Shown here one piece after another: positions 3,808 through 41,924 of a stretch of DNA of 44,668 bases. Position numbers and translations under genes: made by a program. The stretch comes from Methylacidiphilum sp. (lineage in GTDB: Bacteria; Verrucomicrobiota; Verrucomicrobiia; CAIQCK01), in NCBI GenBank assembly GCA_020718125.1, contig DYDC01000001.1:1-44668 (forward strand), given 5' to 3'. The notes beneath the pieces are model-generated. The model had not been told where the DNA came from. It was given only the letters and a program-made list of their open reading frames with translations, and made no database searches. How positions within the stretch are numbered: position 1 is the stretch's first letter; each line of letters begins with the position of its first letter.

Positions 3808-4326
3808 GTCTTCGCGCCGGCCAACATGTCCGCATACGAGCGCGACTGCAAGTCCTCCGGTCTCACTCCAAACGCGGCCATCAGCTCGTCCACCTGCCGC
3901 TGGCAGCGCGGGCGGTCCTCGTCGCGCTCGCCTTTGGCCTCGATCTCGATGAACGTGCCGGGGTCCGCGACGGCGTCGAGGTGGATCTTCACGGTGTCGA
4001 GGAACCAGATCTCGCGCCGTTTGCGGACCTCGATGCGGACACCAAGCGCCTCGCGCAGGGTGGCGCGCAAGGGATCGAGGTCGCCCGCCTGCTCCAGCCG
4101 CGCCAGCGCGACGGTGCTTTCCATGACTGCGGCGGCATCGGGACGCTCGTAAAAGATAAGCGCCTTCTCAATGGGGCCGTCGCGCAGTTTCAGCCGGCCG
4201 CGCGGCACGGTGAAATAGGTGTCCCGTTGCTCACGTGCCAGCAAAGCTCGCGCCCATCTTTGCCAGCGTCGCGCGGGCGCGGGCAAGGTCGGCGCAGCGG
4301 GCCTTGATTTCGATGTTGAAGAACAT
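3804..4326 (-). pseudogene. CYTH-domain / class IV adenylate cyclase (CyaB-like), apparently frameshifted
   Basis: ATG at 4326 opens MFFNIEIKARCADLARARATLAKMGA..., the N-terminal catalytic strand of CYTH proteins, and then hits TGA at 4233-4231. The rest of the family-like sequence (QRDTYFTVPRGRLKLRDGP...IEIEAKGE...) continues in another frame down to the stop at 3804-3806. Confidence 0.6.
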
Positions 4327-4481: not shown

Positions 4482-5003
4482 ATGCGACACACGATCTCGG
4501 TGCTGGTGGAAAACAAATTTGGCGTGCTGGCCCGCATCGCCGAGCTGTTCTCGGGACGCGGTTACAACATTGACACCCTCAACGTCGCCCCGACCCTCGA
4601 CGCGAAGCTCTCCCGCATGACCATCGTCACCCGCGGCGACGACGCCACGCTCGAACAGATCATCAAGCAGCTCAACAAGCTTGTGAACGTCGTCCAGATC
4701 CAGGATTTCCGCGAAGGCCAATACGTGGACCGCGAGCTGATCCTGCTCAAGGTCAAGGCCGACTCCAAGGCCCGCAGCGAGATCATGCAGATCTGCGACA
4801 TCTTCCGCGCCAAGATCGTGGACGTGCAACAGCGCGAACTGTCCATCGAGATCACCGGCACCGAGGACAAGCTGGAGAAATTCCTCCAACTCATGGACCC
4901 GTTCGGCATCGTGGACATCACCCGCACCGGCAAGGTCGCCATGCCGCGGCAAACGAAGACAGCGGCTGCAAGTGAGGCAATGGGGGTCAGGTCTCAACAT
5001 TAG
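4482..5003 (+). CDS. ilvH: acetolactate synthase small (regulatory) subunit
   Basis: MRHTISVLVENKFGVLARIAELFSGRGYNIDTLNVAPT... is the classic ACT-domain IlvH/IlvN N-terminus. The internal ATG at 4482 was chosen over the ORF-track start at 4407. Confidence 0.9.
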   Translation: MRHTISVLVENKFGVLARIAELFSGRGYNIDTLNVAPTLDAKLSRMTIVTRGDDATLEQIIKQLNKLVNVVQIQDFREGQYVDRELILLKVKADSKARSEIMQICDIFRAKIVDVQQRELSIEITGTEDKLEKFLQLMDPFGIVDITRTGKVAMPRQTKTAAASEAMGVRSQH

Positions 5004-5129
5004 ACATTTCCCTCATCACTTCCGCCATCGCCTTCTGCATCTCTTTCTCCCGCCCCGCCCGCTCCGCCATCCTCCGCACCGCCCGCCGCTTCAACGCAAG
5101 CTAAATGTCTGATATTGAGACCTGACCCC
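4983..5129. repeat. 147-bp inverted-repeat (MITE-like) element
   Basis: The 27-nt arms at 4983-5009 and 5103-5129 are reverse complements at 25/27 positions (GGGGTCAGGTCTCAACATTAGACATTT vs AAATGTCTGATATTGAGACCTGACCCC). They flank a 93-nt C-rich core. Confidence 0.6.
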
Positions 5130-5149
5130 GATCACCTTGGATGTTCGCA

Positions 5150-5221
5150 GTAGCGCGATTCATCGCGCGTGCGGTCGCATGTCGGAAGAACGGCGTAACG
5201 CGCGATGAATCGCGCTCCTAC
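5150..5221. repeat. REPIN-like doublet (GTAG-hairpin ... hairpin-CTAC)
   Basis: GTAGCGCGATTCATCGCGCG at 5150-5169 and CGCGCGATGAATCGCGCTCCTAC at 5199-5221 are inverted copies. Each arm is itself a 7-bp hairpin (GCGCGAT-TC-ATCGCGC). Confidence 0.55.
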
Positions 5222-5311
5222 GAACCAAACATCCCCATTTGCTTTCGCATGGAGCGGGTCAACTTCGCGCGCGACATTCTCGATAAGCCGAAAGACGGAC
5301 CTGCAGCCAGC

Positions 5312-6463: not shown

Positions 6464-6473
6464 AATTCTTTTT

Positions 6474-6523
6474 GGCAAAATCATGGTGGGCAAAATCATG
6501 ATTTTGCCCTGTATGATTTTGCC
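6474..6523. repeat. cluster of four GGCAAAATCAT 11-mers (two direct, two inverted), including a perfect 20-nt palindrome
   Basis: Copies lie at 6474-6484, 6489-6499, 6498-6508 (inverted) and 6513-6523 (inverted). GGCAAAATCATGATTTTGCC at 6489-6508 is a perfect palindrome. A fifth copy sits at 7915-7925. Confidence 0.6.
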
Positions 6524-7875
6524 TAAACCTTCTCCGGCACCACGAACGGCGCGCGGTATTCGCGCGTGAGCATCGCGTTGGCTTCCTTGTCGTTCTTGAA
6601 CGTCATCGTCGCCGGGTCGAACTCCAGGCTGCGGCCGAGGCGATAGGAGATGTTGCCGAGGTGGATGAGCGCGCAGGAATAGAAGCCCTCCTGAATGCTC
6701 TTGTTGAACTCTTCCGGCTTCGGCTCGCGGATGGCGTTGACGAAGACCTCGTAGTGATTGCCCGCGCCCTTGCCGGTCGGGCCGGCTTCACGTTTCTCGC
6801 CCATGAACGTGCGCCATTCGCTGACGCTCTTGGCCATGTAGCCTTTGGAGCCGAAGAACAGGTTGCCGCAGGTGTTGCCGGCGCTGGTGGCCATGTAGCC
6901 GTCGGCGCCGGCCTTTTTCATCCACATGCCGTCTTCACTGTTGCTGACCCAGTGGCGCGCCTCGAATTGGAGAATCTTCTTCTTGTCGCCGCCGCCATCG
7001 GGGTTTGGGAACTCATACATCGCCATCAACACGTTCGGCGTCTGCTGGTCGTCGTTGAACATCACGTGGCCGCCCATCGCGCTGATCTTCGTCGGCAGCT
7101 TCACGCCGAGGCCCCAGCGGGCGATGTCCATCTCATGCACGCCCTGGTTGCCCATGTCGCCGTTGCCGTAGTCCCAGTTCCAATGCCACTCGTAGTGGAA
7201 GCGGTTCTTGTTGAACGGCCGCGCCGGCGCGGGGCCTTGCCAGAGGTCGTAGTGGACGCCCTTCGGCACCGGCTCGTCCTCGAAGTGGCCGATGGTCTTG
7301 CGCCACTTGTAGCAAAGGCCCTTGGCCATATAGACCTCGCCGAGACCGCCGTCCTGGAGGAACTGCGCCATCGTCTGCGAGCACGGGTTGCTGCGCTGCT
7401 CCGCGCCGTCCTGCACCAGCACGCGATATGTTTTCGACGCCTCGACCAGCTTGCGGCCCTCGTAGAAGTTGTGGCAGCACGGCTTCTCGACCGAGACGTG
7501 TTTGCCGGCCTGAATGCCGTAGATCGCGGCGAGCGTGTGCCAGTGGTTCGGCGTCACGACTGAGAAGCCGTCAATCTCCTTGTCCTCGACCATCTTCCGG
7601 ATGTCGGTGTAGGTCTTCGGCGCTGGGCGGTTCTTCTTGGTGAAGTGCTTGGCGATAACCTCCGGGAAGAGGTTCTCGTCCACGTCGCAGAGCGCGGCGA
7701 CCTCGACGTTGGGCAGGGCGTTGTAGGCGGCGATGTGGCTCTGGCCCATGCCGTGGATGCCGACGACGGCGAGCCGGACGCGGTCATTGGCGCCAGCCCA
7801 CGCGCGGTGGGTGCCGATGAGCAACGCGCCGGTGGCGACGCTGCCTTGTTTGAGGAAATTGCGACGGGTCATCAT
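6523..7875 (-). CDS. Gfo/Idh/MocA family oxidoreductase with twin-arginine signal
   Basis: MMTRRNFLKQGSVATGALLIG...AWA is a TAT signal. It is followed by a VGIHGMG Rossmann motif and a typical Gfo/Idh/MocA layout. Confidence 0.85.
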   Translation of the reverse strand: MMTRRNFLKQGSVATGALLIGTHRAWAGANDRVRLAVVGIHGMGQSHIAAYNALPNVEVAALCDVDENLFPEVIAKHFTKKNRPAPKTYTDIRKMVEDKEIDGFSVVTPNHWHTLAAIYGIQAGKHVSVEKPCCHNFYEGRKLVEASKTYRVLVQDGAEQRSNPCSQTMAQFLQDGGLGEVYMAKGLCYKWRKTIGHFEDEPVPKGVHYDLWQGPAPARPFNKNRFHYEWHWNWDYGNGDMGNQGVHEMDIARWGLGVKLPTKISAMGGHVMFNDDQQTPNVLMAMYEFPNPDGGGDKKKILQFEARHWVSNSEDGMWMKKAGADGYMATSAGNTCGNLFFGSKGYMAKSVSEWRTFMGEKREAGPTGKGAGNHYEVFVNAIREPKPEEFNKSIQEGFYSCALIHLGNISYRLGRSLEFDPATMTFKNDKEANAMLTREYRAPFVVPEKV

Positions 7876-17340: not shown

Positions 17341-18864
17341 ATGCCCGAATACTTCATCGGAATAGACAGCGGCACCCAATCCACCAAGGCCATCGTCGTG
17401 GACGCGCGCACCGGCCGCGTTGCCGGCAGCGGCGCGAAAGCGCACGGCCTCATCCCGAAACTGCCGCCGGGCCACAAGGAGCAGCACCCGAAGGTGTGGA
17501 TTGACGCGGTCATCGCCAGCGTCCGCGCCGCGCTCAAGGCTGCGAAAGTGAAGGCCGCCGACGTGCGCGGCATCGGCGTCAGCGGCCAACAGCATGGGTT
17601 CGCGCCTCTGGATGCCGCGGGCAACGTCATCCGTCCGGCAAAACTCTGGTGCGACACGTCCACCGCGACGCAATGCGACGAGATCATCGGCAAGCTGGGC
17701 GGCCTCTCGCGCGTCATCGAGCTCATCGGCAACGGCGTGCCGGCGGGTTTCACTGCGTCGAAGATTCTCTGGCTCAAACAAAACGAGCCGCAGAACTACG
17801 CGAGGCTCGCCACCGTCCTGTTGCCGCACGACTACATCAACTTCTGGCTGACGGGCAACAAGACGATGGAGTTCGGCGACGCCAGCGGCACGGCGCTGAT
17901 GGATGTGCGTTCGCGCCAATGGTGCGACGCGGTCATCGCTGCGATTGATCCCGATCTCAAAGCGAAGCTGCCGGCCATCCAGCCGAGCGACCAGCCCGCG
18001 GGCAAGTTGCGTGCTGAAGCCGCCAGGTCGCTTGGTGTGGGCGGCAACGTGATCGTCAGCGCGGGTGGTGGCGACAACATGATGGGTGCCATCGGCACCG
18101 GCAATACGCGGCCAGGCATCGTTACAGCGAGCTTCGGCACCAGCGGGACGATCTACGCGTGCAGCGACAAGCCGGTGATTGATCCCGAGGCGGAGATTGC
18201 CGCGTTCTGCGATTCCACGGGGCAATGGCTGCCGTTGCTCTGCACGATGAACGTCACCGTTGCCACCGAGATGGTCCGCAAAGACTTCGGCTGGACGTTC
18301 GCGAAGATGGACGCCGAAGTGAAGAAGACGCCTGTCGGCGCGGGCGGCCTCGTGCTGCTCCCCTACTTCGAGGGCGAGCGCACACCGAACGTGCCCGATG
18401 GCACAGGCGTCTTCTTCGGGGTGAACAACCGCACGCTCGCGGCGGGGCCGTTCGCGCGCGCGGCGATGGAGGGCGCCACGCTCGGCATGAACTACGGCCT
18501 GAACCGCCTGCGCGCGCTCGGCATCGCGCCGACGCAAATTCGCGCTACGGGCGGCGGCTCGCAATCGCCGGTTTGGCGGCAGATCATGGCCGACGTGTTC
18601 AACGCCGAGGTCGTTTGCGCGCAGACGGCGGAGGGCGCGGCCTACGGCGGCGCGTTGCAGGCAATGTGGTGCTGCGCCCGCCAGCGGGGCAGCAAGGTCG
18701 AGATTTGGGAAATCACCGATGAGTTCGTCAAACTCGACCGGAAGAGCATCGCCAAACCGAAGCCGGCCAACGTGGAGAAGTATCGCGCGCTCCAGACGCT
18801 GCAAGACCAGCTCAGCCGCGATCTGCGCGGGGCGTTTGCGAAGCACCGGGCGTTGGTGTCGTAA
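17341..18864 (+). CDS. xylB: FGGY-family carbohydrate kinase, xylulokinase-like
   Basis: IGIDSGTQSTKAIVVD ... GVSGQQHGFAPLD ... KLWCDTST ... GGGSQSPVWRQIMADVF are FGGY/xylulokinase signatures. Confidence 0.8.
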   Translation: MPEYFIGIDSGTQSTKAIVVDARTGRVAGSGAKAHGLIPKLPPGHKEQHPKVWIDAVIASVRAALKAAKVKAADVRGIGVSGQQHGFAPLDAAGNVIRPAKLWCDTSTATQCDEIIGKLGGLSRVIELIGNGVPAGFTASKILWLKQNEPQNYARLATVLLPHDYINFWLTGNKTMEFGDASGTALMDVRSRQWCDAVIAAIDPDLKAKLPAIQPSDQPAGKLRAEAARSLGVGGNVIVSAGGGDNMMGAIGTGNTRPGIVTASFGTSGTIYACSDKPVIDPEAEIAAFCDSTGQWLPLLCTMNVTVATEMVRKDFGWTFAKMDAEVKKTPVGAGGLVLLPYFEGERTPNVPDGTGVFFGVNNRTLAAGPFARAAMEGATLGMNYGLNRLRALGIAPTQIRATGGGSQSPVWRQIMADVFNAEVVCAQTAEGAAYGGALQAMWCCARQRGSKVEIWEITDEFVKLDRKSIAKPKPANVEKYRALQTLQDQLSRDLRGAFAKHRALVS

Positions 18865-18957
18865 TACGTAATGCGTAATACGTAAAACGGAAACGGAACC
18901 GTCGCACCCAGCCTTACGCATCACGCATTACGCATTACGGTTCACGTTTCCAGTTTC
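18862..18957. repeat. heptanucleotide-repeat tract pair (TAATGCG-type then GAAACGG-type, followed by their complements)
   Basis: TAATACG TAATGCG TAATACG TAAAACG GAAACG GAACCG, then a 12-nt spacer, then TTACGCA TCACGCA TTACGCA TTACGGT TCACGTT TCCAGTT. The tract fills the whole xylB-amidohydrolase intergenic gap. Confidence 0.7.
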
Positions 18958-20791: not shown

Positions 20792-22014
20792 TGGCAATGG
20801 AACTCGACGCGTTTGCGACTGCGGCGTTGGAGGAACTGCGCGCGGCTGGATTGCTTCGGTCGCTCCGCACGGTTGGCAATCCGCAAGGCCCGCTCATTAC
20901 GGTGGACGGCCGGGAGCTGCTGAACTTCTCCTCCAACGATTACCTCGGCCTCGCGAACGATCCGTTGCTGCGCGAGGCGGCGGTGCGCGCTGTGGAGCGA
21001 TACGGCGTCGGCGCGGGCGCGTCGCGGCTGGTCTGCGGCAACATGGCGCCGTATGGCGAACTGGAGGATCGCTTGCCGGCTTTCAAGGGGAAGGAGGCGG
21101 CGGTCGTTTTCGGTTCCGGCTATGCCGCCAATGTCGGCACGATTTGCGCGCTGGTTGGTAAAGGCGACACCGTCATCCTCGACAAGCTCAACCACGCCAG
21201 CATCGTTGATGGCGCCCGGCAGAGCGGGGCGACCGTCCGCGTCTATCCGCACCGCGACATGGACAAGCTAGAGAAGTTGCTGAAACAGAGTGGGCCGTGC
21301 GTCCCGCACGGCCAATCATCGACGATCAGCCGCGCGGGACGCGCGGCCCACCCTAGTCGCACACTCGTAGTCACAGAAACCGTCTTCTCCATGGACGGCG
21401 ACCACGCGCCGCTGCGCGAGATCGTCGAGTTGAAAGACCGCTACGGCGCGTGGCTGATGATTGATGAGGCTCACGCAACGGGCCTCTACGGGTCGCGCCG
21501 GCGGGGACTGGCCGAGGAACTGGGTGTGGAGGACCAGATTGACGTGACCCTCGGCACGTTGAGCAAGGCGCTCGGCTGCGTCGGTGGTTTCGTGTGCGGC
21601 TCGCGCGCGCTCGTGGACTTGCTCATCAACCGGGCGCGCAGCCTCATTTACTCGACGGCCCTGCCGCCGGCCATCGTCGCGGCAGCGAGCGCGGCGGTGC
21701 AGTTTGTGATGAGCGACGCCGGCCAGGCACGGCGGGAGTTGTTGTTGCAGCGGGTGAAGGAATTGCATCAAGGTGTGGTCAACCTTGGATACCGCAGCGT
21801 TCCGACCGGAGCAATCATGCCGATGGTTGTCGGTGACGAAGTCAAAGCGATGGCCCTGTCGCGGAGGCTGCTGGACGCCGGCGTCTTTGTCCCGGCGATC
21901 CGTTATCCGACCGTCGCCCGTGGCGCGGCACGCTTGCGGCTGACTGTGACGGCCGCGCATACCGCTGAACGGGTTCAGTTGCTGATAGGAAAGCTGTCGG
22001 GCGCGGGCCAGTGA
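20788..22014 (+). CDS. bioF: 8-amino-7-oxononanoate synthase
   Basis: NFSSNDYLGL, GSGYAANVG, FSMDGD and TLSKALG (PLP lysine) motifs. It carries a 68-nt palindromic insert. Confidence 0.9.
   Translation: MMAMELDAFATAALEELRAAGLLRSLRTVGNPQGPLITVDGRELLNFSSNDYLGLANDPLLREAAVRAVERYGVGAGASRLVCGNMAPYGELEDRLPAFKGKEAAVVFGSGYAANVGTICALVGKGDTVILDKLNHASIVDGARQSGATVRVYPHRDMDKLEKLLKQSGPCVPHGQSSTISRAGRAAHPSRTLVVTETVFSMDGDHAPLREIVELKDRYGAWLMIDEAHATGLYGSRRRGLAEELGVEDQIDVTLGTLSKALGCVGGFVCGSRALVDLLINRARSLIYSTALPPAIVAAASAAVQFVMSDAGQARRELLLQRVKELHQGVVNLGYRSVPTGAIMPMVVGDEVKAMALSRRLLDAGVFVPAIRYPTVARGAARLRLTVTAAHTAERVQLLIGKLSGAGQ
21287..21354 (+). repeat. REPIN-like hairpin doublet (family B) inside bioF, translated in-frame
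   Basis: AGAGTGGGCCGTGCG-TCC-CGCACGGCC, 15-nt spacer, GCCGCGCG-GGA-CGCGCGGCCCACCCT. It encodes QSGPCVPHGQSSTISRAGRAAHPS between conserved BioF blocks. Confidence 0.75.
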
Positions 22015-22081: not shown

Positions 22082-23413
22082 ATGGATTCGCTCGCTGACA
22101 AGGACCATCGCCACCTCTGGCATCCGTTCACGCAGATGCGTGACTGGATGGCGGAGGAGCCTGTCATTATCGCGCGGGGGCAGGGTGCGCGACTGTGGGA
22201 CACGAAGGGTCGCGAGTATCTCGACGCCAACGCCTCGATCTGGACGAATATCCACGGCCACAACCATCCGCGCATCAACGCCGCCATCCGCGCCCAACTG
22301 GAGAAGGTCGCGCACAGTTCGTTCCTCGGCCTGTCGAACGTGCCGGCCATCGAACTGGCGGAGAAGTTGGTCAGCATCGCGCCTGTAGCGGCGGTCTCTG
22401 ACCGCCGTCGGTTGCCAGAAGACGAACAGCCGGCGGTCAGAGACCGCCGCTACAGTCCGCTCACACGCGTTTTCTACAGCGACGACGGCTCCACGGCGGT
22501 CGAGGTGGCAATCAAGATGGCGCTGCATTACTGGGTCCATCGCGGCCAGCCGCAGCGACGGCGGTTCGTGGCATTCAGCGGCGCCTATCACGGCGATACG
22601 GTCGGCGCGGTGAGCCTCGGCGGGATTGATCTGTTTCACGCGGCCTACAAGCCGCTGCTGTTTGAAGTGGAGCATGTGGCGGACGCGGCGGCGCTGAGAT
22701 CAGTTTTGGAGAGGCATGGCAAAGAAGTGGCTGCGGTGGCGATCGAACCTCTGATTCAGGGCGCGGCGGGGATGAAGGTGTGGCCGCGCGGTTTGTTGGC
22801 AGAGACGCGGCGGCTTTGCGATGAGCACGGGGCGTTGCTGGTCGCCGACGAAGTGATGACGGGCTTTGGCCGGACAGGAACGATGTTCGCGTGCGAGCAG
22901 GAGAGCGTGACGCCGGATTTTCTGTGTCTGGCGAAAGGGTTGACGGGCGGCTACATGCCGCTGGCGGCGACACTGACGACTGACGCAGTGTTCGAAGCGT
23001 TTCTCGGCAGCTACGAAGACCAGAAGACGTTCTTTCACGGCCACAGTTATACAGGCAACCAGCTCGGCTGCGCGGCGGCGCTGGCAAGCTTGGCGGTCTT
23101 CGAGGAAGAGCAGACGCTGGAGCAGTTGCAGCCGAAGATTGGGTTGCTGCGGAACGATCTACAGGAGTTCTGCGAGCTGAAGGCGGTGATGGAGGTCCGT
23201 CAGTGTGGCTTCATCGGCGCAGTGGAGCTTGGCTCGTATCCGTGGAAGGCAAAGGCGGGCATCCGAGTGTGCCAGCGTGCGCGCGAGCTGGGCGCGCTGA
23301 CGCGGCCCATCGGCAACGTCATCGTCATCATGCCGCCACTGTGTGTGACGGAGGATGAGTTGCGGAAGATATGCGAGGCGCTGCGACGGGCGATTCAGGA
23401 GGAGTTGAGATGA
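22082..23413 (+). CDS. bioA: adenosylmethionine-8-amino-7-oxononanoate aminotransferase
   Basis: HLWHPFTQM, RVFYSDDGSTAVEVAIKMA, ADEVMTGFGRTG and MPPL motifs. It carries a 73-nt palindromic insert. Confidence 0.9.
   Translation: MDSLADKDHRHLWHPFTQMRDWMAEEPVIIARGQGARLWDTKGREYLDANASIWTNIHGHNHPRINAAIRAQLEKVAHSSFLGLSNVPAIELAEKLVSIAPVAAVSDRRRLPEDEQPAVRDRRYSPLTRVFYSDDGSTAVEVAIKMALHYWVHRGQPQRRRFVAFSGAYHGDTVGAVSLGGIDLFHAAYKPLLFEVEHVADAAALRSVLERHGKEVAAVAIEPLIQGAAGMKVWPRGLLAETRRLCDEHGALLVADEVMTGFGRTGTMFACEQESVTPDFLCLAKGLTGGYMPLAATLTTDAVFEAFLGSYEDQKTFFHGHSYTGNQLGCAAALASLAVFEEEQTLEQLQPKIGLLRNDLQEFCELKAVMEVRQCGFIGAVELGSYPWKAKAGIRVCQRARELGALTRPIGNVIVIMPPLCVTEDELRKICEALRRAIQEELR
22383..22455 (+). repeat. 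REPIN-like hairpin doublet (family C) inside bioA, translated in-frame
   Basis: CTGTAG-CGGCGGTC-TCT-GACCGCCG, 23-nt spacer, CGGCGGTC-AGA-GACCGCCG-CTACAG. The arms are perfect inverted copies. It encodes VAAVSDRRRLPEDEQPAVRDRRYS just before the conserved RVFYSDDGS block. Confidence 0.8.
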
Positions 23414-28861: not shown

Positions 28862-28951
28862 TGGCGGAGGGGGCGAGATTCGAACTCGCGAGGGCTTTTA
28901 CACCCCACACGCTTTCCAGGCGTGCTCCTTCAACCACTCGGACACCCCTCC
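28862..28951 (-). tRNA. tRNA-Ser (anticodon GGA)
   Basis: The reverse complement folds as acceptor GGAGGGG/CCCCTCC, anticodon stem CACGC/GCGTG with loop CTGGAAA, a long variable arm, T-arm GCGAG-TTCGAAT-CTCGC, and an encoded CCA. Confidence 0.9.
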
Positions 28952-29084: not shown

Positions 29085-30197
29085 ATGCCCCCAGCCAAAG
29101 CGGCCGACAAAACCGAAAAAACAGACAAAGCCGAGAAGATCGAGAAACCGGCGGGAACCGACGCGGCGCCCGCCAAGACCCCCGCGCAGGTCAAGCAGCT
29201 CGAAGCCGCCATCGCCCACATCGCCAAGACCTACGGCGAGGGCAGCATCATGCGCCTTGGCGACGAGCGCGCCCGCGTGAAGATCGGCGTCATCTCGACG
29301 GGTTCGCTGGCCATTGACATGGCGCTCGGCATCGGCGGCGTGCCGCGCGGGCGCATCGTGGAGATTTACGGCCCGGAAATGTCCGGCAAGACCACGCTCG
29401 TGCTCCAGATCATGGCGCAGGCGCAGAAAAACGGCGGCTTGGCGGCGTTCATTGACGCCGAGCACGCGATGGCCCCGAACTACGCCAAGAAGCTCGGCGT
29501 CAACCTCGACGATTTGCTGGTGAGCCAGCCTGATAGTGGTGAAGAAGCGCTTCAGATCGTCGAGACGCTGGTTCGTTCCAACGCGCTTGACGTTATCGCG
29601 ATTGACTCGGTCGCCGCGCTCGTTCCGCGGGCCGAACTCGAAGGCCAGATGGGCGACGCCATCGTCGGCGTGCAGGCGCGTCTCATGAGCCAGGCGATGC
29701 GCAAACTGACCTCGATTGTGGCGAGGGCCAACACCTGCGTCATCTTCACCAACCAGCTCCGCGAAAAAATCGGCGTCATGTTCGGCAGCCCGGAGACGAC
29801 GCCGGGCGGCAAGGCGCTGAAGTTCTACGCCAGCGTGCGCATTGACATCCGCCGCCAGCAGCAGATTAAAGACCCCGAAGGCCGCGCCATCGGCAACCAT
29901 TGCAAGGTGAAGGTCGTGAAGAACAAGTGCGCCCCGCCGTTCACCGAGTGCGAATTCGACGTGATGTATAACGAGGGCATCTCGAAGGAAGGCAGCATCC
30001 TCGACGTGGCGACCAACTGCGGCGTCGTCGAGAAGAAAGGCTCCTGGCTCCAGTTCGAGGGCGAGATGATCGGCCAGGGCCGCGAAGCCGCGAAGGACTT
30101 CCTCCGCCAGAACCCCGCCGTCGGTGAGAAGATCGTCGCGGCGGTGAAGGCCAAGGCGGCAGGCCCGGCGGCTGCCGCCGAAGTGAAGAGTGAATAG
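29085..30197 (+). CDS. recA: recombinase RecA (with K/E/A-rich N-terminal extension)
   Basis: [17 protein letters not shown] Walker A, FIDAEHA and [20 protein letters not shown] motifs. Confidence 0.95.
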
Positions 30198-30269
30198 TTC
30201 AGAGTGAAGAGTTCAGAAAGTCAGTCACCGTTAACTCTTCACTCTTCACTCTTCACTTTTAACTTTCTG
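30180..30269. repeat. heptanucleotide-repeat tract pair (GTGAAGA-type and complement TCTTCAC-type)
   Basis: AGAGTGAAGAGTT (30201-30213) pairs perfectly with AACTCTTCACTCT (30233-30245). CAGAAAG (30214-30220) pairs with CTTTCTG (30263-30269). The tract begins inside the last recA codons. Confidence 0.7.
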
Positions 30270-30274
30270 CCGTC

Positions 30275-33200
30275 ATGACCAGTTCCGAAATACGCCAGTT
30301 GTTCCTCGACTACTTCAAGCGCCAGGGGCACACCATCGTGCCGTCGTCGTCGCTGCTGCCCGACGCGCCGAACCTGCTGTTCACCAACGCCGGCATGAAC
30401 CAGTTCGTGCCGATCTTCCTCGGCCAGCAGCCGTGCCCCTACAAGCCCCAGCGCGCCGCCGACACGCAGAAGTGCATCCGCGCGGGCGGCAAGCACAACG
30501 ACCTCGAAGACGTCGGCCTCGACACCTACCACCACACGTTCTTCGAGATGCTCGGCAACTGGAGCTTCGGCGACTATTTCAAAAAGGAAGCCATCGCGTG
30601 GGCGTGGGAACTCGTCACATCGAAGGACTGGTGGGGCTTCCCGAAGGAGCGCATCTACGCCACGGTCTATAAGCCCGGCCCCGGCGATCCGAGCGAGTTC
30701 GACCAGGAAGCCTACAACCACTGGGCGAGCATCTTCACCGCCGCCGGCCTCGACCCGAAGCAGCACATCGTCTTCGGCAACAAGAAGGACAACTTCTGGA
30801 TGATGGGCGACACCGGCCCGTGCGGCCCGTGTTCGGAGCTGCACGTGGACCTCACGCCCAAGGGTGACACGCACGGCGCGCTGGTCAACAAAGGCAGCGC
30901 GCAGTGCATCGAGATCTGGAACCTCGTGTTCATGGAGTTCAACGCGAACCCGGACGGCACGTTTTCGCCGCTGCCGGCCAAGAATGTGGACACCGGCGCG
31001 GGCTTCGAGCGCGTCACCTCGATCATCCAGTGCACGAAGAACTTCACCGACTTCGGCGGCATCATCTCCAACTACGAGACTGACGTCTTCCGGCCCATCT
31101 TCGACGTGCTGGAGAAGCTCAGCGGCAAACGCTACGGCTCCACGCTGCCGAAGGCGGGCGAATTACCGGCTGCCGAGCAGGAGAAAATCGACATCGCTTT
31201 CCGTGTCATCGCCGACCACATCCGTTGCCTGGGCTTCGGCATCGCTGACGGCATCCCGCCGAGCAACGAAGGCCGCGGCTACGTCCTGCGCCGCATCCTG
31301 CGCCGCGCCGTCCGCTACGGCCGCTCACTCGGCTTCCACGAGCCGTTCTTCTACAAGCTCGTCGCGGTGCTCGCCCGGACGATGGGCGGCGTGTTCCCGG
31401 AAGCGCGCCAGCGGCAGGCGAGCATCGAGAAGGCCCTGCGCGGCGAGGAGGAGAGTTTCAACCGGACCTTGGATCGCGGCATTGAATTGTTCAACGAGGA
31501 AGCGTTGCGATTGACGGGGAGCGCACGCGTCCCGCGTGCGACTTCCGGCGTCTCGCCGGAAGCTGCGGTGGGCGCACGCTACTCCAAGCGTCGTTTGCCG
31601 CACTTTGAACGACCGTGGGCGAAATACATCGTGACGTTCTCCACCGTGGAGCGCCGGCAACTATCGCCGGCGGCCCGCGGTATCGTCTTGAACAGTCTGT
31701 TGTTTGTGCAGCAGCAAGGCCGCTACCAACTCTACGCCGCGTGTGTGATGCCCGACCACGTCCATTTGCTCTTCGAACCGCAAATCAAGACAGAAGACGC
31801 CGAGGGCAAGCCAATGTTTTGGTCGCTCACAGAACTCCTGCATTCCATCAAATCGTTCACGGCACACGAGATCAACAAGACAGAGGCCAAAAGCGGAGCC
31901 GTATGGGAAAAGGAGTCGTTTGACCGAATGATCCGGTCGGATGCGGACTGTGAAGAGAAGTTCAACTACATCTGCCAAAACCCTTGGGGGCCGGGTGGGG
32001 TTGCGCAGACGGAACCGTATCAGTGGTTGTGGACGCCTGAGGTTGCGCAACCGCAGACTCCTCGGCGGGACGCCGAGGAGGGCACGCGGGACGCGTGCGC
32101 TCCCCGGAACCTAACGGGCGACTTCGCTTTCAAACTCTATGACACCTACGGCTTCCCGCTCGACCTCACGGAACTGATGGCTCGCGAGCAGGGACTGAAA
32201 GTGGACGTGCCAGGCTTCGAAAAGCGGATGGAAGAACAACGGCAGCGGGCGCGTGAGGACTACGAGAAGAAGAAGTCGGTCATCGCGGCTGTGGGCGAGG
32301 GGCTGAAGGTCGAGCCGACGAAGTTCCTCGGCTACGACAACCTCGAAGCCGAGGCGGTCGTCGAGGCCGTCGCGCCGGGCGCGGAGGCGGGCGAGTTCGA
32401 GGTCGTCCTCGACAAGACGCCATTCTATGCCGAGATGGGCGGCCAGGTCGGCGACACGGGCCTGGTCCACGCGCCGGGACACGACTGGACCGAACTGGGC
32501 AAGCTACAGGTGCTCGACACGCAGCGTCAGGGCGAGGTCCATGTTCACCGCTCCAAGCTCTCCGACGGCCGCGCGCCGGTGGTGGGGGAGGCGGTGCGCG
32601 CAGCAGTGGACGCGGCGCGGCGGGCGAACATCCAGCGGCACCACACGGTGACGCACCTGTTCCACTGGGCGTTGCACGAGGTCGTCAGCAAGGACGCGCG
32701 GCAGCGCGGCTCGCATGTCGCGCCGGACCGGATGCGGTTCGATTTCAATCACCCGGAGCGGCTGACCGAGCGGCAGATCGCCGACATCGAGCGGCTGGTT
32801 AACGAGCGGATCAAGGAGAACGCGCCGGTCTATTGGACCGAAGCGCCTTACACCGAGATCAAGGGCAACGCGGCCGTGATGCAGTTCTTCGGCGAGAAAT
32901 ACGGCGACATCGTCCGCGTGGTGCAGATCGGCGGCCACGCGGGCAAGTTCGACGGCTATTCGGCGGAGCTTTGTGGCGGCACGCACACGCGGAACACGGG
33001 CGACATTCAGTTCTTCAAGATCGCGAAAGAGTCTGCCATCGCGGCGGGCACGCGCCGCGTCGAGGCGGTCGTGGGCCGGTTCGCGCTGGAGTTCGTGGAG
33101 AAGATGAAGGTTCAGCAGCGGGCCGAAGCCGCCAAAGCGCAGGCTCGCGGGCAGGACAAGGAACTCGCGAAGCAGCGGCAGGCGGATGCGCAGCGTCAGG

Positions 33201-33565
33201 CCGCGGGTCTTGCCGGTCAACTACTGGCGAAGGCGCAGCAGGTCGGCGCCGTGAAGTGCGTCGTTGCCAACGTCGGGGAAACGACGCCTGATGCGCTACG
33301 GACGATTGTTGACGGCATCAAGCCGAAGTTGCCGAGCGGCGTGGTTGTGCTCGGTGGCACGGGCGGCGGCAAGGTGTCGCTGGTTTGCTTCATCACACCC
33401 GACCTCGTGAAAGCGGGCAAGAACGCCGGCGAGATTGTTGGCGCGCTGGCGAAGACTTGCGGCGGTGGCGGCGGCGGCAGGCCGGACATGGCGCAGGCCG
33501 GCGGCAAAGACCCGTCGAAGCTCGACGAGGCGCTGAGATCTGTCACGGGCTTGATTGGCGGCTGA
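30275..33565 (+). CDS. alaS: alanine--tRNA ligase carrying an in-frame ~197-codon insertion
   Basis: FTNAGMNQF, KHNDLEDVG, WSFGDYFK, LYDTYGFPLDLT, the HHTVTHLL-type editing motif (RHHTVTHLFHWAL) and a C-terminal GGGG DHHA1-like end. It is 1096 aa versus the roughly 870-900 aa I recall for typical bacterial AlaRS. Confidence 0.9.
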   Translation: MTSSEIRQLFLDYFKRQGHTIVPSSSLLPDAPNLLFTNAGMNQFVPIFLGQQPCPYKPQRAADTQKCIRAGGKHNDLEDVGLDTYHHTFFEMLGNWSFGDYFKKEAIAWAWELVTSKDWWGFPKERIYATVYKPGPGDPSEFDQEAYNHWASIFTAAGLDPKQHIVFGNKKDNFWMMGDTGPCGPCSELHVDLTPKGDTHGALVNKGSAQCIEIWNLVFMEFNANPDGTFSPLPAKNVDTGAGFERVTSIIQCTKNFTDFGGIISNYETDVFRPIFDVLEKLSGKRYGSTLPKAGELPAAEQEKIDIAFRVIADHIRCLGFGIADGIPPSNEGRGYVLRRILRRAVRYGRSLGFHEPFFYKLVAVLARTMGGVFPEARQRQASIEKALRGEEESFNRTLDRGIELFNEEALRLTGSARVPRATSGVSPEAAVGARYSKRRLPHFERPWAKYIVTFSTVERRQLSPAARGIVLNSLLFVQQQGRYQLYAACVMPDHVHLLFEPQIKTEDAEGKPMFWSLTELLHSIKSFTAHEINKTEAKSGAVWEKESFDRMIRSDADCEEKFNYICQNPWGPGGVAQTEPYQWLWTPEVAQPQTPRRDAEEGTRDACAPRNLTGDFAFKLYDTYGFPLDLTELMAREQGLKVDVPGFEKRMEEQRQRAREDYEKKKSVIAAVGEGLKVEPTKFLGYDNLEAEAVVEAVAPGAEAGEFEVVLDKTPFYAEMGGQVGDTGLVHAPGHDWTELGKLQVLDTQRQGEVHVHRSKLSDGRAPVVGEAVRAAVDAARRANIQRHHTVTHLFHWALHEVVSKDARQRGSHVAPDRMRFDFNHPERLTERQIADIERLVNERIKENAPVYWTEAPYTEIKGNAAVMQFFGEKYGDIVRVVQIGGHAGKFDGYSAELCGGTHTRNTGDIQFFKIAKESAIAAGTRRVEAVVGRFALEFVEKMKVQQRAEAAKAQARGQDKELAKQRQADAQRQAAGLAGQLLAKAQQVGAVKCVVANVGETTPDALRTIVDGIKPKLPSGVVVLGGTGGGKVSLVCFITPDLVKAGKNAGEIVGALAKTCGGGGGGRPDMAQAGGKDPSKLDEALRSVTGLIGG
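31516..32105 (+). mobile_element. REP-associated tyrosine transposase (RAYT / IS200-like Y1 HUH) cassette with 24-nt perfect terminal inverted repeats, embedded in alaS
   Basis: GGGGAGCGCACGCGTCCCGCGTGC (31516-31539) is the exact reverse complement of 32082-32105. The interior encodes RRLPHFERPWAKYIVTF..., MPDHVHLLF (HUH) and FNYICQNPW (catalytic Tyr region). There is no stop codon in the alaS frame. Confidence 0.75.
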
Positions 33566-33870: not shown

Positions 33871-33904
33871 TCGCCGGGCGGGGCCGATATTTTCGGCCGT
33901 GTTG

Positions 33905-34130
33905 TAAGTCTTCAGGGCAGGGTGAACATGCCGCCTGTAGTGACGGTGGCGGCAAGTGATTCCCGACCGGCGGTAAACCCCGCGACCCCTCGCGAGCAGA
34001 GGGCTGATCCGGTGCAACTCCGGAGGCGACGGTAAAGTCCGGACGAAAGAAGAATTCGTGGCTCGCCTGCAAGGCAGGCGGCGTGTCACTTTCGACCCTG
34101 AAGGCTGTGCGGCTTCAGGGTTGTTATTTT
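33905..34130 (+). promoter_or_regulatory. FMN riboswitch (RFN element) with expression platform, upstream of ribBA
   Basis: CTTCAGGGCAGGGTGAA...ATTCCCGACCGGCGGTAAACCCCGCGA...GATCCGGTGCAACTCCGGAGGCGACGGTAAAGTCCGGACGAAAGAAGA matches the conserved RFN core blocks in order. Confidence 0.85.
34095..34130 (+). terminator. riboswitch terminator/sequestor hairpin
   Basis: ACCCTGAAG-(9-nt loop)-CTTCAGGGT followed by TGTTATTTTA, immediately before the ribBA ATG. Confidence 0.5.
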
Positions 34131-38063: not shown

Positions 38064-39213
38064 GTTCGACGAGCAGATGATGCGGCGCGCGCTGGCGCTG
38101 GCCCGGCGCGCGTTGGGGGAGACTTCGCCCAACCCGATGGTGGGGGCCATCGTCGCCAAGAACCGCCGCCTTATCGCCGAGGGCTACCATTACCGCGCAG
38201 GCACGCCACACGCCGAGATTCATGCGCTGAAAGCGGCCGGAACCCGCGCCAGGGGCGCAGACCTCTACGTGACTCTGGAGCCGTGCAGCACACACGGCCG
38301 GACACCGCCCTGCACGGACGCCATCATCGAGGCTGGCATCCGCCGCGTCGTGGTCGCGACGAAGGATCCAAACCCGCGTCACGCAGGCCGCGGCCTTGAC
38401 TTATTGAAAGAGGCTGGCATCAAGGTCGAGATGGGCCTGCTGGCTGAGGAAGCGGCCCGATTCAACGAATGTTTCAACAAATGGATCCGCGCAGGCACGC
38501 CGTTTGTCATCGCGAAGGCCGCCATGTCGCTCGACGGCAAGATTGCGACCGCCGGCGGCAAGTCGAAGTGGATCACCGGCGAGCCGGCGCGCGCGCTGGT
38601 GCGGGAGTTGCGGCGCGGTGTGGACGCGATCATGGTTGGGTGGCGAACCGTGGCGTTGGACGACCCGCGGTTGACGGTGCGGCTGCGCGGCGTCAAGCAT
38701 CAGCCGTGGCGGGTGGTGGTGGACGCGCGCGGTGAGTCGGGCTTGAAGGCGAACGTTTACACCGACGAGCACAAGGCGCGGACGATGGTGGTCACGAGCA
38801 AGTTGGCGCCTGCGGCTTGGCGCAAGCAACTAGCCGACCGCGGAGTTGCAATCATTGAGTGCGCTACTGTAGCGGCGGTCTCTGACCGCCGCAGCACCCG
38901 GAGTGAACGGCCGGCGGTCGGAGACCGCCGCTACAGTGATCGGATTGACCTGCGTGACGCGCTGCGGCGGCTCGGCGAGCGCGAGATCACGAGCGTGCTT
39001 GCCGAGGGTGGCGGGCGGTTATTGGGGGCGTTGATGGATCAGCGGCTGGTGGACAAGCTGGTGTTCTTCTACGCGCCGAAGATCATCGGCGGACGCGAAG
39101 CGCCGACGGCCATCGAGGGCGAGGGCATCAAGGCGCTGGCCGATGCCGTCACGTTGCGAAACGTCGAGTGGCGCAGGCTGGGGGAGGACCTCGTGGTGAC
39201 GGCTTACTGCTGA
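38041..39213 (+). CDS. ribD: bifunctional riboflavin deaminase/reductase RibD
   Basis: PNPMVGAIV, HAEIHAL and TLEPCSTHGRTPPC deaminase motifs, plus a C-terminal reductase region (EGGG). It carries a 70-nt palindromic insert. Confidence 0.9.
   Translation: MPMPSSVEFDEQMMRRALALARRALGETSPNPMVGAIVAKNRRLIAEGYHYRAGTPHAEIHALKAAGTRARGADLYVTLEPCSTHGRTPPCTDAIIEAGIRRVVVATKDPNPRHAGRGLDLLKEAGIKVEMGLLAEEAARFNECFNKWIRAGTPFVIAKAAMSLDGKIATAGGKSKWITGEPARALVRELRRGVDAIMVGWRTVALDDPRLTVRLRGVKHQPWRVVVDARGESGLKANVYTDEHKARTMVVTSKLAPAAWRKQLADRGVAIIECATVAAVSDRRSTRSERPAVGDRRYSDRIDLRDALRRLGEREITSVLAEGGGRLLGALMDQRLVDKLVFFYAPKIIGGREAPTAIEGEGIKALADAVTLRNVEWRRLGEDLVVTAYC
38867..38936 (+). repeat. REPIN-like hairpin doublet (family C) inside ribD, translated in-frame
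   Basis: CTGTAGCGGCGGTCTCTGACCGCCG ... CGGCGGTCGGAGACCGCCGCTACAG. The left arm is identical to the bioA copy. It encodes VAAVSDRRSTRSERPAVGDRRYS. Confidence 0.8.
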
Positions 39214-40103
39214 TCAGCAAAAGTTGCCAGCCGGCGAAACGCTTTTTGTTTCTCGCTCAGTTCGAGCTTGGTCGTGTTCAGCGTTTCCCGCAGGAACTCG
39301 ATGCTCTGGTCATAAACTTCGCGGTTTACCGGATACGGATGACCGTCTTTGCCGCCGTGGGCGAAGCTGAAACGGGCCGGGTCGCGCCAACTGGGGGCGG
39401 TGCCGTAAAGTAGTTCGCTGATGAGAGCGAGGGCGCGCAAAGTTTTCGGCCCGACGCCGGGGAGTGACAGGAGTTGCTCGAAGGACTGTGGCGCGGTTTC
39501 GTAGGTTTGAAGCAGGATGCGATGAAGGCGGTCGGGGTTGATGTCCGCGATGCGTATCGGATGGCGGCGAGGCTGGGTTAGTTCGAAACCGGGCAGCGCG
39601 GGCGTAGAGTGGGCCGTGCGTCTCGCACGGCTTGTCGCTGATGATTGGCCGTGCGGGACGCACGGCCCACTCTGTTCAAGTTCCTTCATCAGCGCGTCAG
39701 GCTGCTCGCGGGTCACAGTCACGCTTGCTTGACGAGTCGCATCACTCTCCGCCGCCACAAGGTTCAGCGTCGCTTGTCCGCGCTGGTCACAGCAGACGGC
39801 GGCGTGAGGCTCGTTGACAAAGTTCTGCACGTTGTCGCCGAGCCAAGGGTAGCGGCGGGCGTATTTGCCGGTCGCGTTCATGCCTTGCTGGACTACGGCC
39901 CAATAGCCGCTCGACGTGAACAGAAAACAGTGGTGATAGAGGTCGTAGCCGTCCTGCACGGCAGCAGAGTCCACCTTTGCAGCGAGTTTACTCGCGTAAA
40001 CCAATTCCATCGGACTGCGGCTGAGCGCGTAACAATGCGCCTCGATCTCCGACGGTGTCTTGCGCGAGGTGGCGCCTTTGCCGCCGGCGACGCCGGTTTT
40101 CAC
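39204..40103 (-). pseudogene. DUF763-family gene lacking its N-terminal ~110 codons
   Basis: Family-like sequence starts at GVAGGKGATSRKTPSEIE... and includes VDSAAVQDGYDLYHH, VVQQGMN and EPHAAVCCD. The upstream part of the ORF-track reading frame is antisense to ribE and unrelated. The only possible start is the GTG at 40103. Confidence 0.5.
39606..39673 (-). repeat. REPIN-like hairpin doublet (family B) inside the DUF763 remnant, in-frame
   Basis: On the minus strand the first 27 nt (AGAGTGGGCCGTGCGTCCCGCACGGCC) are identical to the bioF copy. It encodes QSGPCVPHGQSSATSRARRTAHST. Confidence 0.75.
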
Positions 40104-41527: not shown

Positions 41528-41533
41528 TCTTTT

Positions 41534-41905
41534 CGAAGGGGCGGATAGTCGCTGGCTTCGCTTCGGCGGGGCTGGAGGAAAGTCCGGACTCCATAGGGCA
41601 GGACGCCCCGTGAAAGCGGGGGAGCGCCGCTTCAAAGCGGCGTGACGGACAGTGCCACAGAGAACATACCGCCCCGATGTCGGCAACGGCGCCGGGGTAA
41701 GGGTGAAAAGGTGCGGTAAGAGCGCACCGGGCGCGCGAGCAATCGCCGCCGCATGGAAAACCCCGTCCGGAGCAAGACCGAATAGGGGACTGAGTGGCCC
41801 GCTCGTCGGTCCCGGGTATTGGTCGCATAGACAAATGACTGTCTGAATCCTGTGAGCCTTTGCGGGCCACGCAGGATAAACAAAATCCGGCTTACGGCCC
41901 CTTCG
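41534..41905 (+). ncRNA. rnpB: RNase P RNA, bacterial type A
   Basis: P1 CGAAGGGGC/GCCCCTTCG. Conserved GAGGAAAGTCCGGACTCC, ACAGAGAACATACCGCC, GGTAAGGGTGAAAAGGTGCGGTAAGAGCGCACC and ACAAAATCCGGCTTAC blocks are present in the canonical order. Confidence 0.9.
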
Positions 41906-41924
41906 AATTATTGAAAATGGAGTG

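Follow-up and report, generated by a model that had tools for sequence, protein, structure and literature searches.

Results

A transposase-encoding cassette lies in frame within alaS

The DNA that we analyzed is a 44,668-nucleotide (nt) stretch from Methylacidiphilum sp. (contig DYDC01000001.1 of assembly GCA_020718125.1; hereafter the window), and the subject of this work is its alaS gene, encoding alanyl-tRNA synthetase (AlaRS), whose reading frame contains a cassette for a REP-associated tyrosine transposase (RAYT; REP, repetitive extragenic palindrome). In the list of open reading frames (ORFs), alaS occupies positions 30275–33565 of the forward strand, on which all features of the gene described below also lie, and comprises 1096 codons plus a stop codon with no stop in between, as an original prediction made from the sequence alone had held. 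Pfam analysis of the product splits the tRNA-synt_2c domain around residues ~414–611 and fills the gap with Y1_Tnp (PF01797), the tRNA_SAD and DHHA1 domains following; this is the extra segment that had been predicted to separate conserved AlaRS blocks. The same 3291-nt gene is present in an independent assembly, the Logan assembly of run SRR25664382, with two substitutions, neither of them in the cassette, and with identical junctions.

The cassette spans positions 31516–32105, a unit of 590 nt with ends GGGGAGC...GCTCCCC, or 588 nt (31517–32104) when its ends are written GGGAGC...GCTCCC without the outer G and C. It is bounded by a perfect 24-nt inverted repeat (31516–31539 and 32082–32105) that reaches 44 nt at 84% complementarity (31515–31558 and 32063–32106), and the same termini surround relatives in ThrRS (threonyl-tRNA synthetase), AlaRS, RecG and CarB. 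Folded as single-stranded DNA, each end forms two adjoining hairpins, arranged in mirror order at the two ends, with folding energies of −22.2 to −22.7 kcal/mol and z-scores of −3.4 to −5.1 (0 of 200 shuffled sequences folded as well). Both the perfect repeat and the paired hairpins had been predicted, and both were reproduced. At the left end, the tag GGGGAGC and the first hairpin (31516–31540; stem 31522–31529 and 31533–31540, loop TCC) are followed by a second hairpin, CTTCCGGCG-TCT-CGCCGGAAG (31542–31562), in which seven of the nine stem pairs show compensatory changes among relatives. At the right end, the counterpart of the second hairpin, CTCCTCGGCG-GGA-CGCCGAGGAG (32058–32080), is recognized both from its fold and from the inverted repeat, and it precedes GCACGCG-GGA-CGCGTGC and the terminal tag GCTCCCC (32082–32105), the exact reverse complement of 31516–31539.

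Between these ends lies a catalytic core of 154 amino acids (YSKRRLPHF...YQWLWTPE; 31580–32041). Of the six possible frames of the cassette a single one is open, and it has no stop codon of its own, the frame running on into alaS. GC content at third codon positions (GC3) is 0.72 in the RAYT core compared with 0.91 and 0.85 in the two alaS flanks.

The insert is a RAYT-type transposase

Taken alone, the excised insert matched Y1_Tnp with 30.1 bits (gathering cut-off, 23 bits) and the NCBIfam model for RAYTs (NF047646, REP_Tyr_transpos) with 79.4 bits (cut-off, 80 bits), over positions 4–145 of the 146 in that model, whereas the NCBIfam IS200 model (NF033573) gave 19.2 bits against a cut-off of 55. 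We recovered 473 homologues of the insert; typical ones are ~205 amino acids long, are ~60% identical to it over 92–100% of its length, and bear the JGI name "REP element-mobilizing transposase RayT". Two of the motifs on which the original prediction of a Y1 enzyme of the HUH (histidine-hydrophobe-histidine) type had rested are in the insert, and their catalytic residues are conserved in the relatives: PDHVHLLF, whose His-Val-His is encoded at 31757–31765, and FNYICQNPW, which provides a YxxxNP context and whose catalytic tyrosine codon (31967–31969) aligns with the tyrosine region of 4ER8, the structure of E. coli TnpA_REP bound to a REP hairpin.

Structure prediction pointed in the same direction. 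In an AlphaFold2 model of the insert (built with alignment A1), the means of ten-residue blocks of the predicted local distance difference test (pLDDT) score were ~88–95 across residues 41–130, and the hairpin-encoded ends (residues 1–19 and 177–199) scored below 50. The best Foldseek match of this model was 4ER8_A (E = 7e-6, probability 1.00), followed by ISDra2, IS608 and IS200 transposase structures; a search of the Protein Data Bank with the insert sequence alone matched 4ER8 only weakly (E = 0.26). Because the profile, homology, fold and repeat evidence agree, the identification of the alaS insert as an in-frame, stop-free cassette that lies between inverted REP hairpins and encodes a Y1 HUH transposase of the RAYT type is well supported.

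The cassette occupies a permissive loop that is empty in the closest orthologues

When the insert is removed from the alaS product, the nearest relatives of the remainder are 901-amino-acid AlaRS proteins of 78–80% identity in which the site is empty. Since these orthologues lack the segment, it does not represent a conserved AlaRS domain unrelated to transposases, an outcome that the original prediction had considered. The empty site in the nearest orthologues, together with the lower GC3 of the core, points to the cassette having been gained in the AlaRS lineage of the window.

The site aligns to a loop of E. coli AlaRS at residues ~385–389 (structure 3HXU), where the alignment has a gap. 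In verrucomicrobial AlaRS proteins the loop can be as short as 39 or as long as 176 residues, and many of these proteins carry unrelated inserts there, from which we conclude that the site is permissive. Of the three options that had been offered for how AlaRS accommodates the insert, tolerance of a whole domain in a surface loop is accordingly the best supported. (At one empty copy of the site, in locus L035, the peptide GSRAP caught our attention as a possible excision footprint; we dropped this idea because its DNA, GGC TCG CGC GCG CCT, does not match the cassette tags.)

RAYTs are nested in the reading frames of many housekeeping genes

What the original prediction had not foreseen is that this arrangement is family-wide. 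In a scan of one genome per species, 320 stretches encode relatives of the insert, and we examined the best 80 of these 320. The transposase was located independently of the host frame, and each match was then extended to the nearest stop codons; some of the source metagenome-assembled genomes (MAGs) may contain insertion or deletion errors. The 80 loci contain 86 RAYT copies, all in long reading frames co-oriented with the host gene, most with hundreds of residues on either side. The frame is intact on both sides in 83 of the 86, and the remaining three are frameshifts. In one of these, from a long-read MAG, the frame shifts at several points of the gene. In the other two, from Illumina-derived MAGs (L038, ~3977–3983; L072, ~3990–3995), one shift falls exactly where the cassette begins on its left side, and it could reflect either an assembly error at the hairpin or a gene that is truly disrupted (or recoded).

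The hosts at the 80 loci are AlaRS (54, not counting the window), the methionine synthase MetH (12), ThrRS (11), CarB (2) and RecG (1). In the AlaRS hosts the sequences on either side of the RAYT match the N- and C-terminal parts of the window protein without a change of frame, and the insertions recur at three sites: site A, after KRYGSTLP; site B, the site in the window; and site C, before the editing domain. In MetH hosts the RAYT is found at two sites. Five alaS frames (L031, L033, L055, L070 and L074) contain two RAYT cassettes each, at two of sites A, B and C, and the paired RAYTs are 27–51% divergent and have different types of flanking REP.

An exhaustive search of representatives of 50%-identity clusters returned 65 clusters with E < 1e-30, long proteins being frequent among them, and Pfam analysis of 20 of the 65 identified AlaRS, RecG, PriA, valyl-tRNA synthetase (ValRS), PurH, a glycyl-radical enzyme resembling pyruvate formate-lyase, and a DNA methylase as partners. 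Altogether the arrangement is found in at least 10 unrelated housekeeping protein families, mostly in Verrucomicrobiota; by source name, the PriA case is from Verrucomicrobiota, the ValRS case from Phycisphaeraceae and the methylase case from Rubrobacteraceae. NCBI names the ValRS and PriA cases by the host enzyme only, and calls the 904-amino-acid methylase-containing protein of Rubrobacteraceae "REP-associated tyrosine transposase". Among these, P0309 (ValRS), P0344 (the DNA methylase protein) and P0299/P0388 (PriA, 48 contigs) are distant relatives with RAYTs of 38–50% identity.

Nested RAYTs have no conserved start of their own, judging from the sequences upstream of the core: within the 15 codons before it, an in-frame ATG occurs in one of the 86 copies, and an ATG or GTG in 14. 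The in-frame GTG at 31568–31570 of the window, proposed earlier as a possible independent start, is present, but it is not conserved in relatives and we rejected it in that role.

Relatives that stand alone are embedded as well. P0028 and P0060 directly adjoin the genes on both sides, one of them Amuc_1100-like and the other the gene that follows it in a PilM/secretin operon. At L082:3001–3618 and L083:3001–3654, stand-alone relatives of ~205–217 amino acids lie 0–4 nt from both neighbors, the slot that they fill being conserved in a pilus-like operon (PilM, Amuc_1100-like, RAYT, a gene of no assigned function, secretin/tetratricopeptide repeat), and their frame still passes through the REP hairpins.

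Cassette ends covary as structured DNA would

The cassettes in ThrRS, AlaRS, RecG and CarB have a common left terminus, GGGGAGCGCACGCGTCYCGCGTGC-CGTTTCCGGCGTCKCGCCGGAAAC, and a common right terminus, CTCGGCGNGACGCCGAG-GAG-GGCACGCGRGACGCGTGCGCTCCCC. Those in CarB end in GGGTAGC...GCTACCC, which contains the canonical GTAG tag of REPs, and the tag of the window cassette is GGAG. Among 62 distinct left ends the tag GG(G/T)AGC is invariant and both stems vary by compensation: 90.7% of stem cells are paired, versus 75.9% in shuffled ends and 37–57% when the partners are slid, and 11 of the 16 stem pairs show double (compensatory) changes, none of 500 shuffles doing as well. This covariation argues for a constraint on DNA (or RNA) structure, as would be expected of the substrate of a Y1 enzyme. 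The different RAYT lineages have REP sequences of their own.

The ends are also coding sequence. The cassette tag is read in frame as Gly-Ser in 64 of 72 copies, and the distance from tag to tag is divisible by three in 50 of the 72. Doublets of 100–135 nt that have the same tags and no RAYT are present at these loci too, frequently within the same loops of the host, and for this reason the cassette looks like a REPIN (a doublet of inverted REPs) with a transposase in its spacer. In one MetH gene a RAYT fills one of the linkers and a doublet the second, an arrangement that is swapped in other MetH genes; comparing L051 and L071 with L044 and L058, the two inter-domain linkers are alternately filled by a RAYT cassette or by a RAYT-less doublet or single REP remnant. 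The occupancy of these linkers suggests interconversion or exchange of the cassette and its RAYT-less forms.

Purifying selection on nested RAYTs and their probable turnover

The catalytic residues are nearly invariant in the embedded relatives (first histidine, 86/86; second histidine, 85/86; tyrosine, 86/86). The ratio of nonsynonymous to synonymous divergence (dN/dS) of the RAYT core has a median of 0.11 in 137 same-host pairs, as low as that of the flanking host sequence. By sequence, then, the nested RAYT appears to be a still-working enzyme under purifying selection.

In a neighbor-joining tree most RAYT clades track the host gene and site, and the clade that includes the window mixes site B (the window, L007, L014, L018 and L022) with site A (L008, L024 and L025). 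RAYT and host distances are only weakly correlated (rho 0.2–0.3). In the pair L025/L079 the catalytic domains of the hosts differ by 4% and the RAYTs at the same site by 36%; in the pair L009/L013 synonymous divergence (dS) is 0.13 in the cassette compared with 0.86 in the host. Both pairs hint at transfer or replacement of the cassette. GC3 is lower in the RAYT core than in the host flanks in 75 of 84 copies. Taken together, the tree, the weak correlation, these two pairs and the GC3 difference suggest that cassettes stay in place for long periods, with episodes of movement, replacement or transfer in between.

Other repeats and RNAs in the window

The window also contains RAYT-less, REPIN-like doublets that are read in frame within genes. 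One family is represented in a bioF-like aminotransferase gene (21287–21354, forward strand) and in a DUF763 gene (39606–39673, reverse strand); these two share a GCGTCCCGC core, a stem-TCC-stem form and an encoded peptide beginning QSGPCVPHGQSS. A second, GTAG-tagged family is represented in a bioA-like aminotransferase gene (22383–22455) and in ribD (38866–38937), both on the forward strand, and encodes VAAVSDRR...DRRYS. Within each family both copies are read in the same frame, and the cognate RAYT of neither family is in the window. The original prediction had grouped the bioF, bioA and ribD doublets with the alaS cassette on the basis of shared architecture and core. This proved accurate as to the core and stem-TCC-stem form of the bioF-like doublet, but the bioA-like and ribD doublets belong to the other, GTAG-tagged family, and even the bioF-like and DUF763 copies represent a REP family different from that of the cassette.

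Elsewhere, between the genes around 5.0–5.2 kb, a GTAG-tagged doublet (GTTCGCAGTAGCGCGATTCATCGCGCG..., 5143–5225) sits at the very start of ORF 5141, and at 4975–5137 another inverted repeat has arms of 35 nt separated by 93 nt; these are probably further families of REPINs or miniature inverted-repeat transposable elements. AT-rich inverted repeats at 30181–30265 (between recA and alaS), 18860–18946 and 6470–6527, all at or near gene boundaries, are made of reiterated short words of the GTGAAGAGT, CGTAATA and TTTTGCC/GGCAAAATCA types. We further noted a flavin mononucleotide riboswitch just after alaS and upstream of ribBA (33904–34058), a bacterial class A RNase P RNA (41533–41910), and tRNA-Ser(GGA) on the reverse strand (28862–28951).

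Discussion

We consider it probable that AlaRS remains functional with the translated cassette as a passenger domain inside it, and that this domain acts on its REP hairpins while the essential host gene provides expression and protection against loss. The cassette has no start or stop codon and presumably no promoter of its own, and it lies in a variable surface loop of the tRNA-recognition domain; it would therefore be transcribed and translated as part of AlaRS. The product would be a 1096-amino-acid protein with the transposase as a passenger on two disordered linkers, the linkers being the translated hairpins. AlaRS would keep its function, and the transposase would keep its catalytic competence, acting on cognate REP hairpins in single-stranded DNA. 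An essential host gene may offer the cassette both constitutive expression and protection from imprecise deletion. Gene-nested RAYTs would be long-term residents of the permissive loops and linkers that housekeeping genes offer, occasionally moving or being replaced. This account builds on the anatomy of the cassette, its family membership, the conservation of its frame, purifying selection, hairpin covariation and its presence or absence among relatives, all of which the comparisons establish.

Several points weigh against it. Translation of the fusion, the activity of both enzymes and the selective logic are parts of the account that we only infer, and the transposase domain may be released from AlaRS post-translationally. 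In a search of the 44.7-kb window the cassette's REP hairpin was found at the two ends of the cassette only, none of the neighboring doublets being the same REP, so any cognate REPIN population in the genome is putative. The insert falls 0.6 bits short of the 80-bit equivalog cut-off of REP_Tyr_transpos. We found no recent intragenomic RAYT duplicates among the loci examined, and given the divergence between RAYTs paired in one alaS, any current mobility is conjectural. Finally, no empty allele of the species came to light: a search of metagenome contigs for the alaS flanks joined with a gap of 0–30 nt returned no matches, in samples from which the species itself is absent, as indicated by the lack of any match to the 24-mer just upstream of the insertion site.

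The strongest of the competing explanations, though in our judgment an unlikely one, is that the insert is removed before AlaRS matures, by precise DNA excision in some members of the population, by RNA removal or ribosomal bypass aided by pairing of the inverted ends, or by protein cleavage or splicing, so that the functional AlaRS would be free of the domain. Pairing of the 44-nt inverted repeat, whether in RNA or in single-stranded DNA, could draw the two junctions close to each other, and the flanks encoded by the hairpins, being disordered by prediction, would be accessible to proteases. Precise excision is, moreover, a property of the IS200/IS605-type Y1 enzymes of ISHp608 and ISDra2. 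However, removal at the level of DNA or RNA, which had been one of the three options in the original prediction, needs no conservation of frame; it found no support, and it is disfavored by the finding that in 83 of 86 copies the frame continues without a stop into the host sequence on either side and by the openness of the cassette in a single frame. The case for an intein fails in other respects: no Hint-family or other intein Pfam match was found, the junction residues (L/TGS and APR/N) have no intein signatures, and the insertions are in variable loops and inter-domain linkers, unlike inteins, which occupy conserved cores. The restriction to loops and linkers, together with the absence of intein features, leads us to argue that the insert stays in the protein.

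Somewhat less likely still is that AlaRS has domesticated the domain for a host function, for example extra nucleic-acid binding, and that it is no longer mobile. Such a fate would fit the strong purifying selection on the RAYT domain and the existence of long-lived RAYT clades that are largely specific to one host gene and site, and Bertels and co-workers are said to regard RAYTs in general as vertically inherited, host-associated genes. Yet the closest AlaRS orthologues lack the domain, the same domain occurs at three AlaRS sites and in at least 10 unrelated protein families, and RAYT and host distances correlate weakly. The catalytic histidines and tyrosine have been kept, and the flanking hairpins and tag have been conserved by compensatory change, which is the mark of a constraint on a DNA substrate rather than on a protein. 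Thus, the suggestion of a functional or domesticated fusion holds insofar as the domain is under selection, but the function indicated is that of a mobile element and not an adaptation specific to AlaRS. It is very improbable that we are dealing with an assembly chimera or a dead pseudogene: the window does come from a MAG contig, and repeats can cause misjoins, but the cassette and its junctions are identical in the separate Logan assembly, the same architecture recurs at 80 loci from many studies and platforms, both halves of alaS are in frame, and the host flanks have low dN/dS.

Set beside known RAYT/REPIN systems, such as those of E. coli (TnpA_REP) and Pseudomonas fluorescens, the alaS cassette is alike in the Y1 HUH fold and motifs, with 4ER8 as the best structural match; in its inverted REP hairpins with a GTAG-like tag; and in the nearby RAYT-less doublets with the same ends and the lineage-specific REPs. 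Classical RAYTs, however, are free-standing intergenic genes with their own start and stop codons, whereas the alaS RAYT is nested in an essential gene, its frame passing through both flanking hairpins with no conserved start or stop. The cassette also shares with IS200/IS605 elements (ISHp608 and ISDra2) a Y1 HUH transposase and ends that are hairpins and not duplex-bound terminal inverted repeats, and their structures are neighbors of the insert model. It differs from them in its low score against the IS200 model, in having no accessory tnpB and no independent gene structure, and in that we saw no multi-copy identical elements.

Palindromic mobile repeats that are translated within genes have been described, namely the Rickettsia palindromic elements (RPEs) and the intragenic GTAG/CGTC REPs, the latter being notable in the verrucomicrobium Opitutus terrae; tRNA synthetases (of species other than O. 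terrae) and DNA-repair genes are among the reported hosts of intragenic repeats, and for RAYT genes an overlap of REPs with their ends is described, with no mention of a RAYT nested in a host gene (Di Nocera et al. 2013, PMC3733652). RPEs and intragenic REPs resemble the alaS cassette, and the four in-frame doublets of the window, in placing a palindromic repeat in frame within a gene that stays open. They are short, however, and encode no enzyme, whereas in alaS the transposase itself is the in-frame insert. Inteins with homing endonucleases offer a second parallel, in that a selfish, enzyme-coding insert sits in frame in essential genes, is expressed by the host gene, and recurrently occupies the same sites across lineages; the cassette departs from them in having no Hint domain or splicing residues and in residing in variable loops and linkers and not in conserved catalytic motifs. 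Our literature searches found intragenic REPs (PMC3733652) and no RAYT embedded in frame in a host gene, in agreement with the original prediction, which named no precedent for a transposase domain within an aminoacyl-tRNA synthetase. A large survey of Y1 transposases threw out long proteins as fusions or errors. The gene-nested RAYT apparently represents a mode of residence of mobile elements within host genes that has so far gone undescribed.

We lean, if only slightly, toward a broader view in which "gene-nested" RAYTs represent a distinct transposase lifestyle. Such elements, having lost start and stop codons of their own, would be translated as passengers in permissive loops of essential enzymes (such as AlaRS, ThrRS, ValRS, MetH, CarB, RecG, PriA and PurH); their hairpins would serve both as DNA ends and as code for linkers; and different lineages would recolonize or replace one another at the same sites, making them, in effect, non-splicing functional analogues of inteins across the bacteria of the Planctomycetes-Verrucomicrobia-Chlamydiae group.

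The finding bears on annotation, public records calling the hosts plain "alanine--tRNA ligase" or "primosomal protein N'", and on protein engineering, for which the insertions map, in natural proteins, the loops at which aminoacyl-tRNA synthetases and other enzymes can accept an entire additional domain. The predicted fusion, of ~120 kDa, is an experimentally tractable case with two activities that can be assayed separately. The cassette is an ORF from end to end in which the hairpins for DNA recognition double as linker code. If our interpretation is correct, it would add to intergenic residence and protein splicing a third strategy by which selfish or mutualistic elements maintain themselves in essential genes. 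Gene-nested RAYTs connect what is known of in-frame palindromic repeats with what is known of RAYT/REPIN systems, and would account for the spread of such repeats into the coding regions of Verrucomicrobiota and their relatives.

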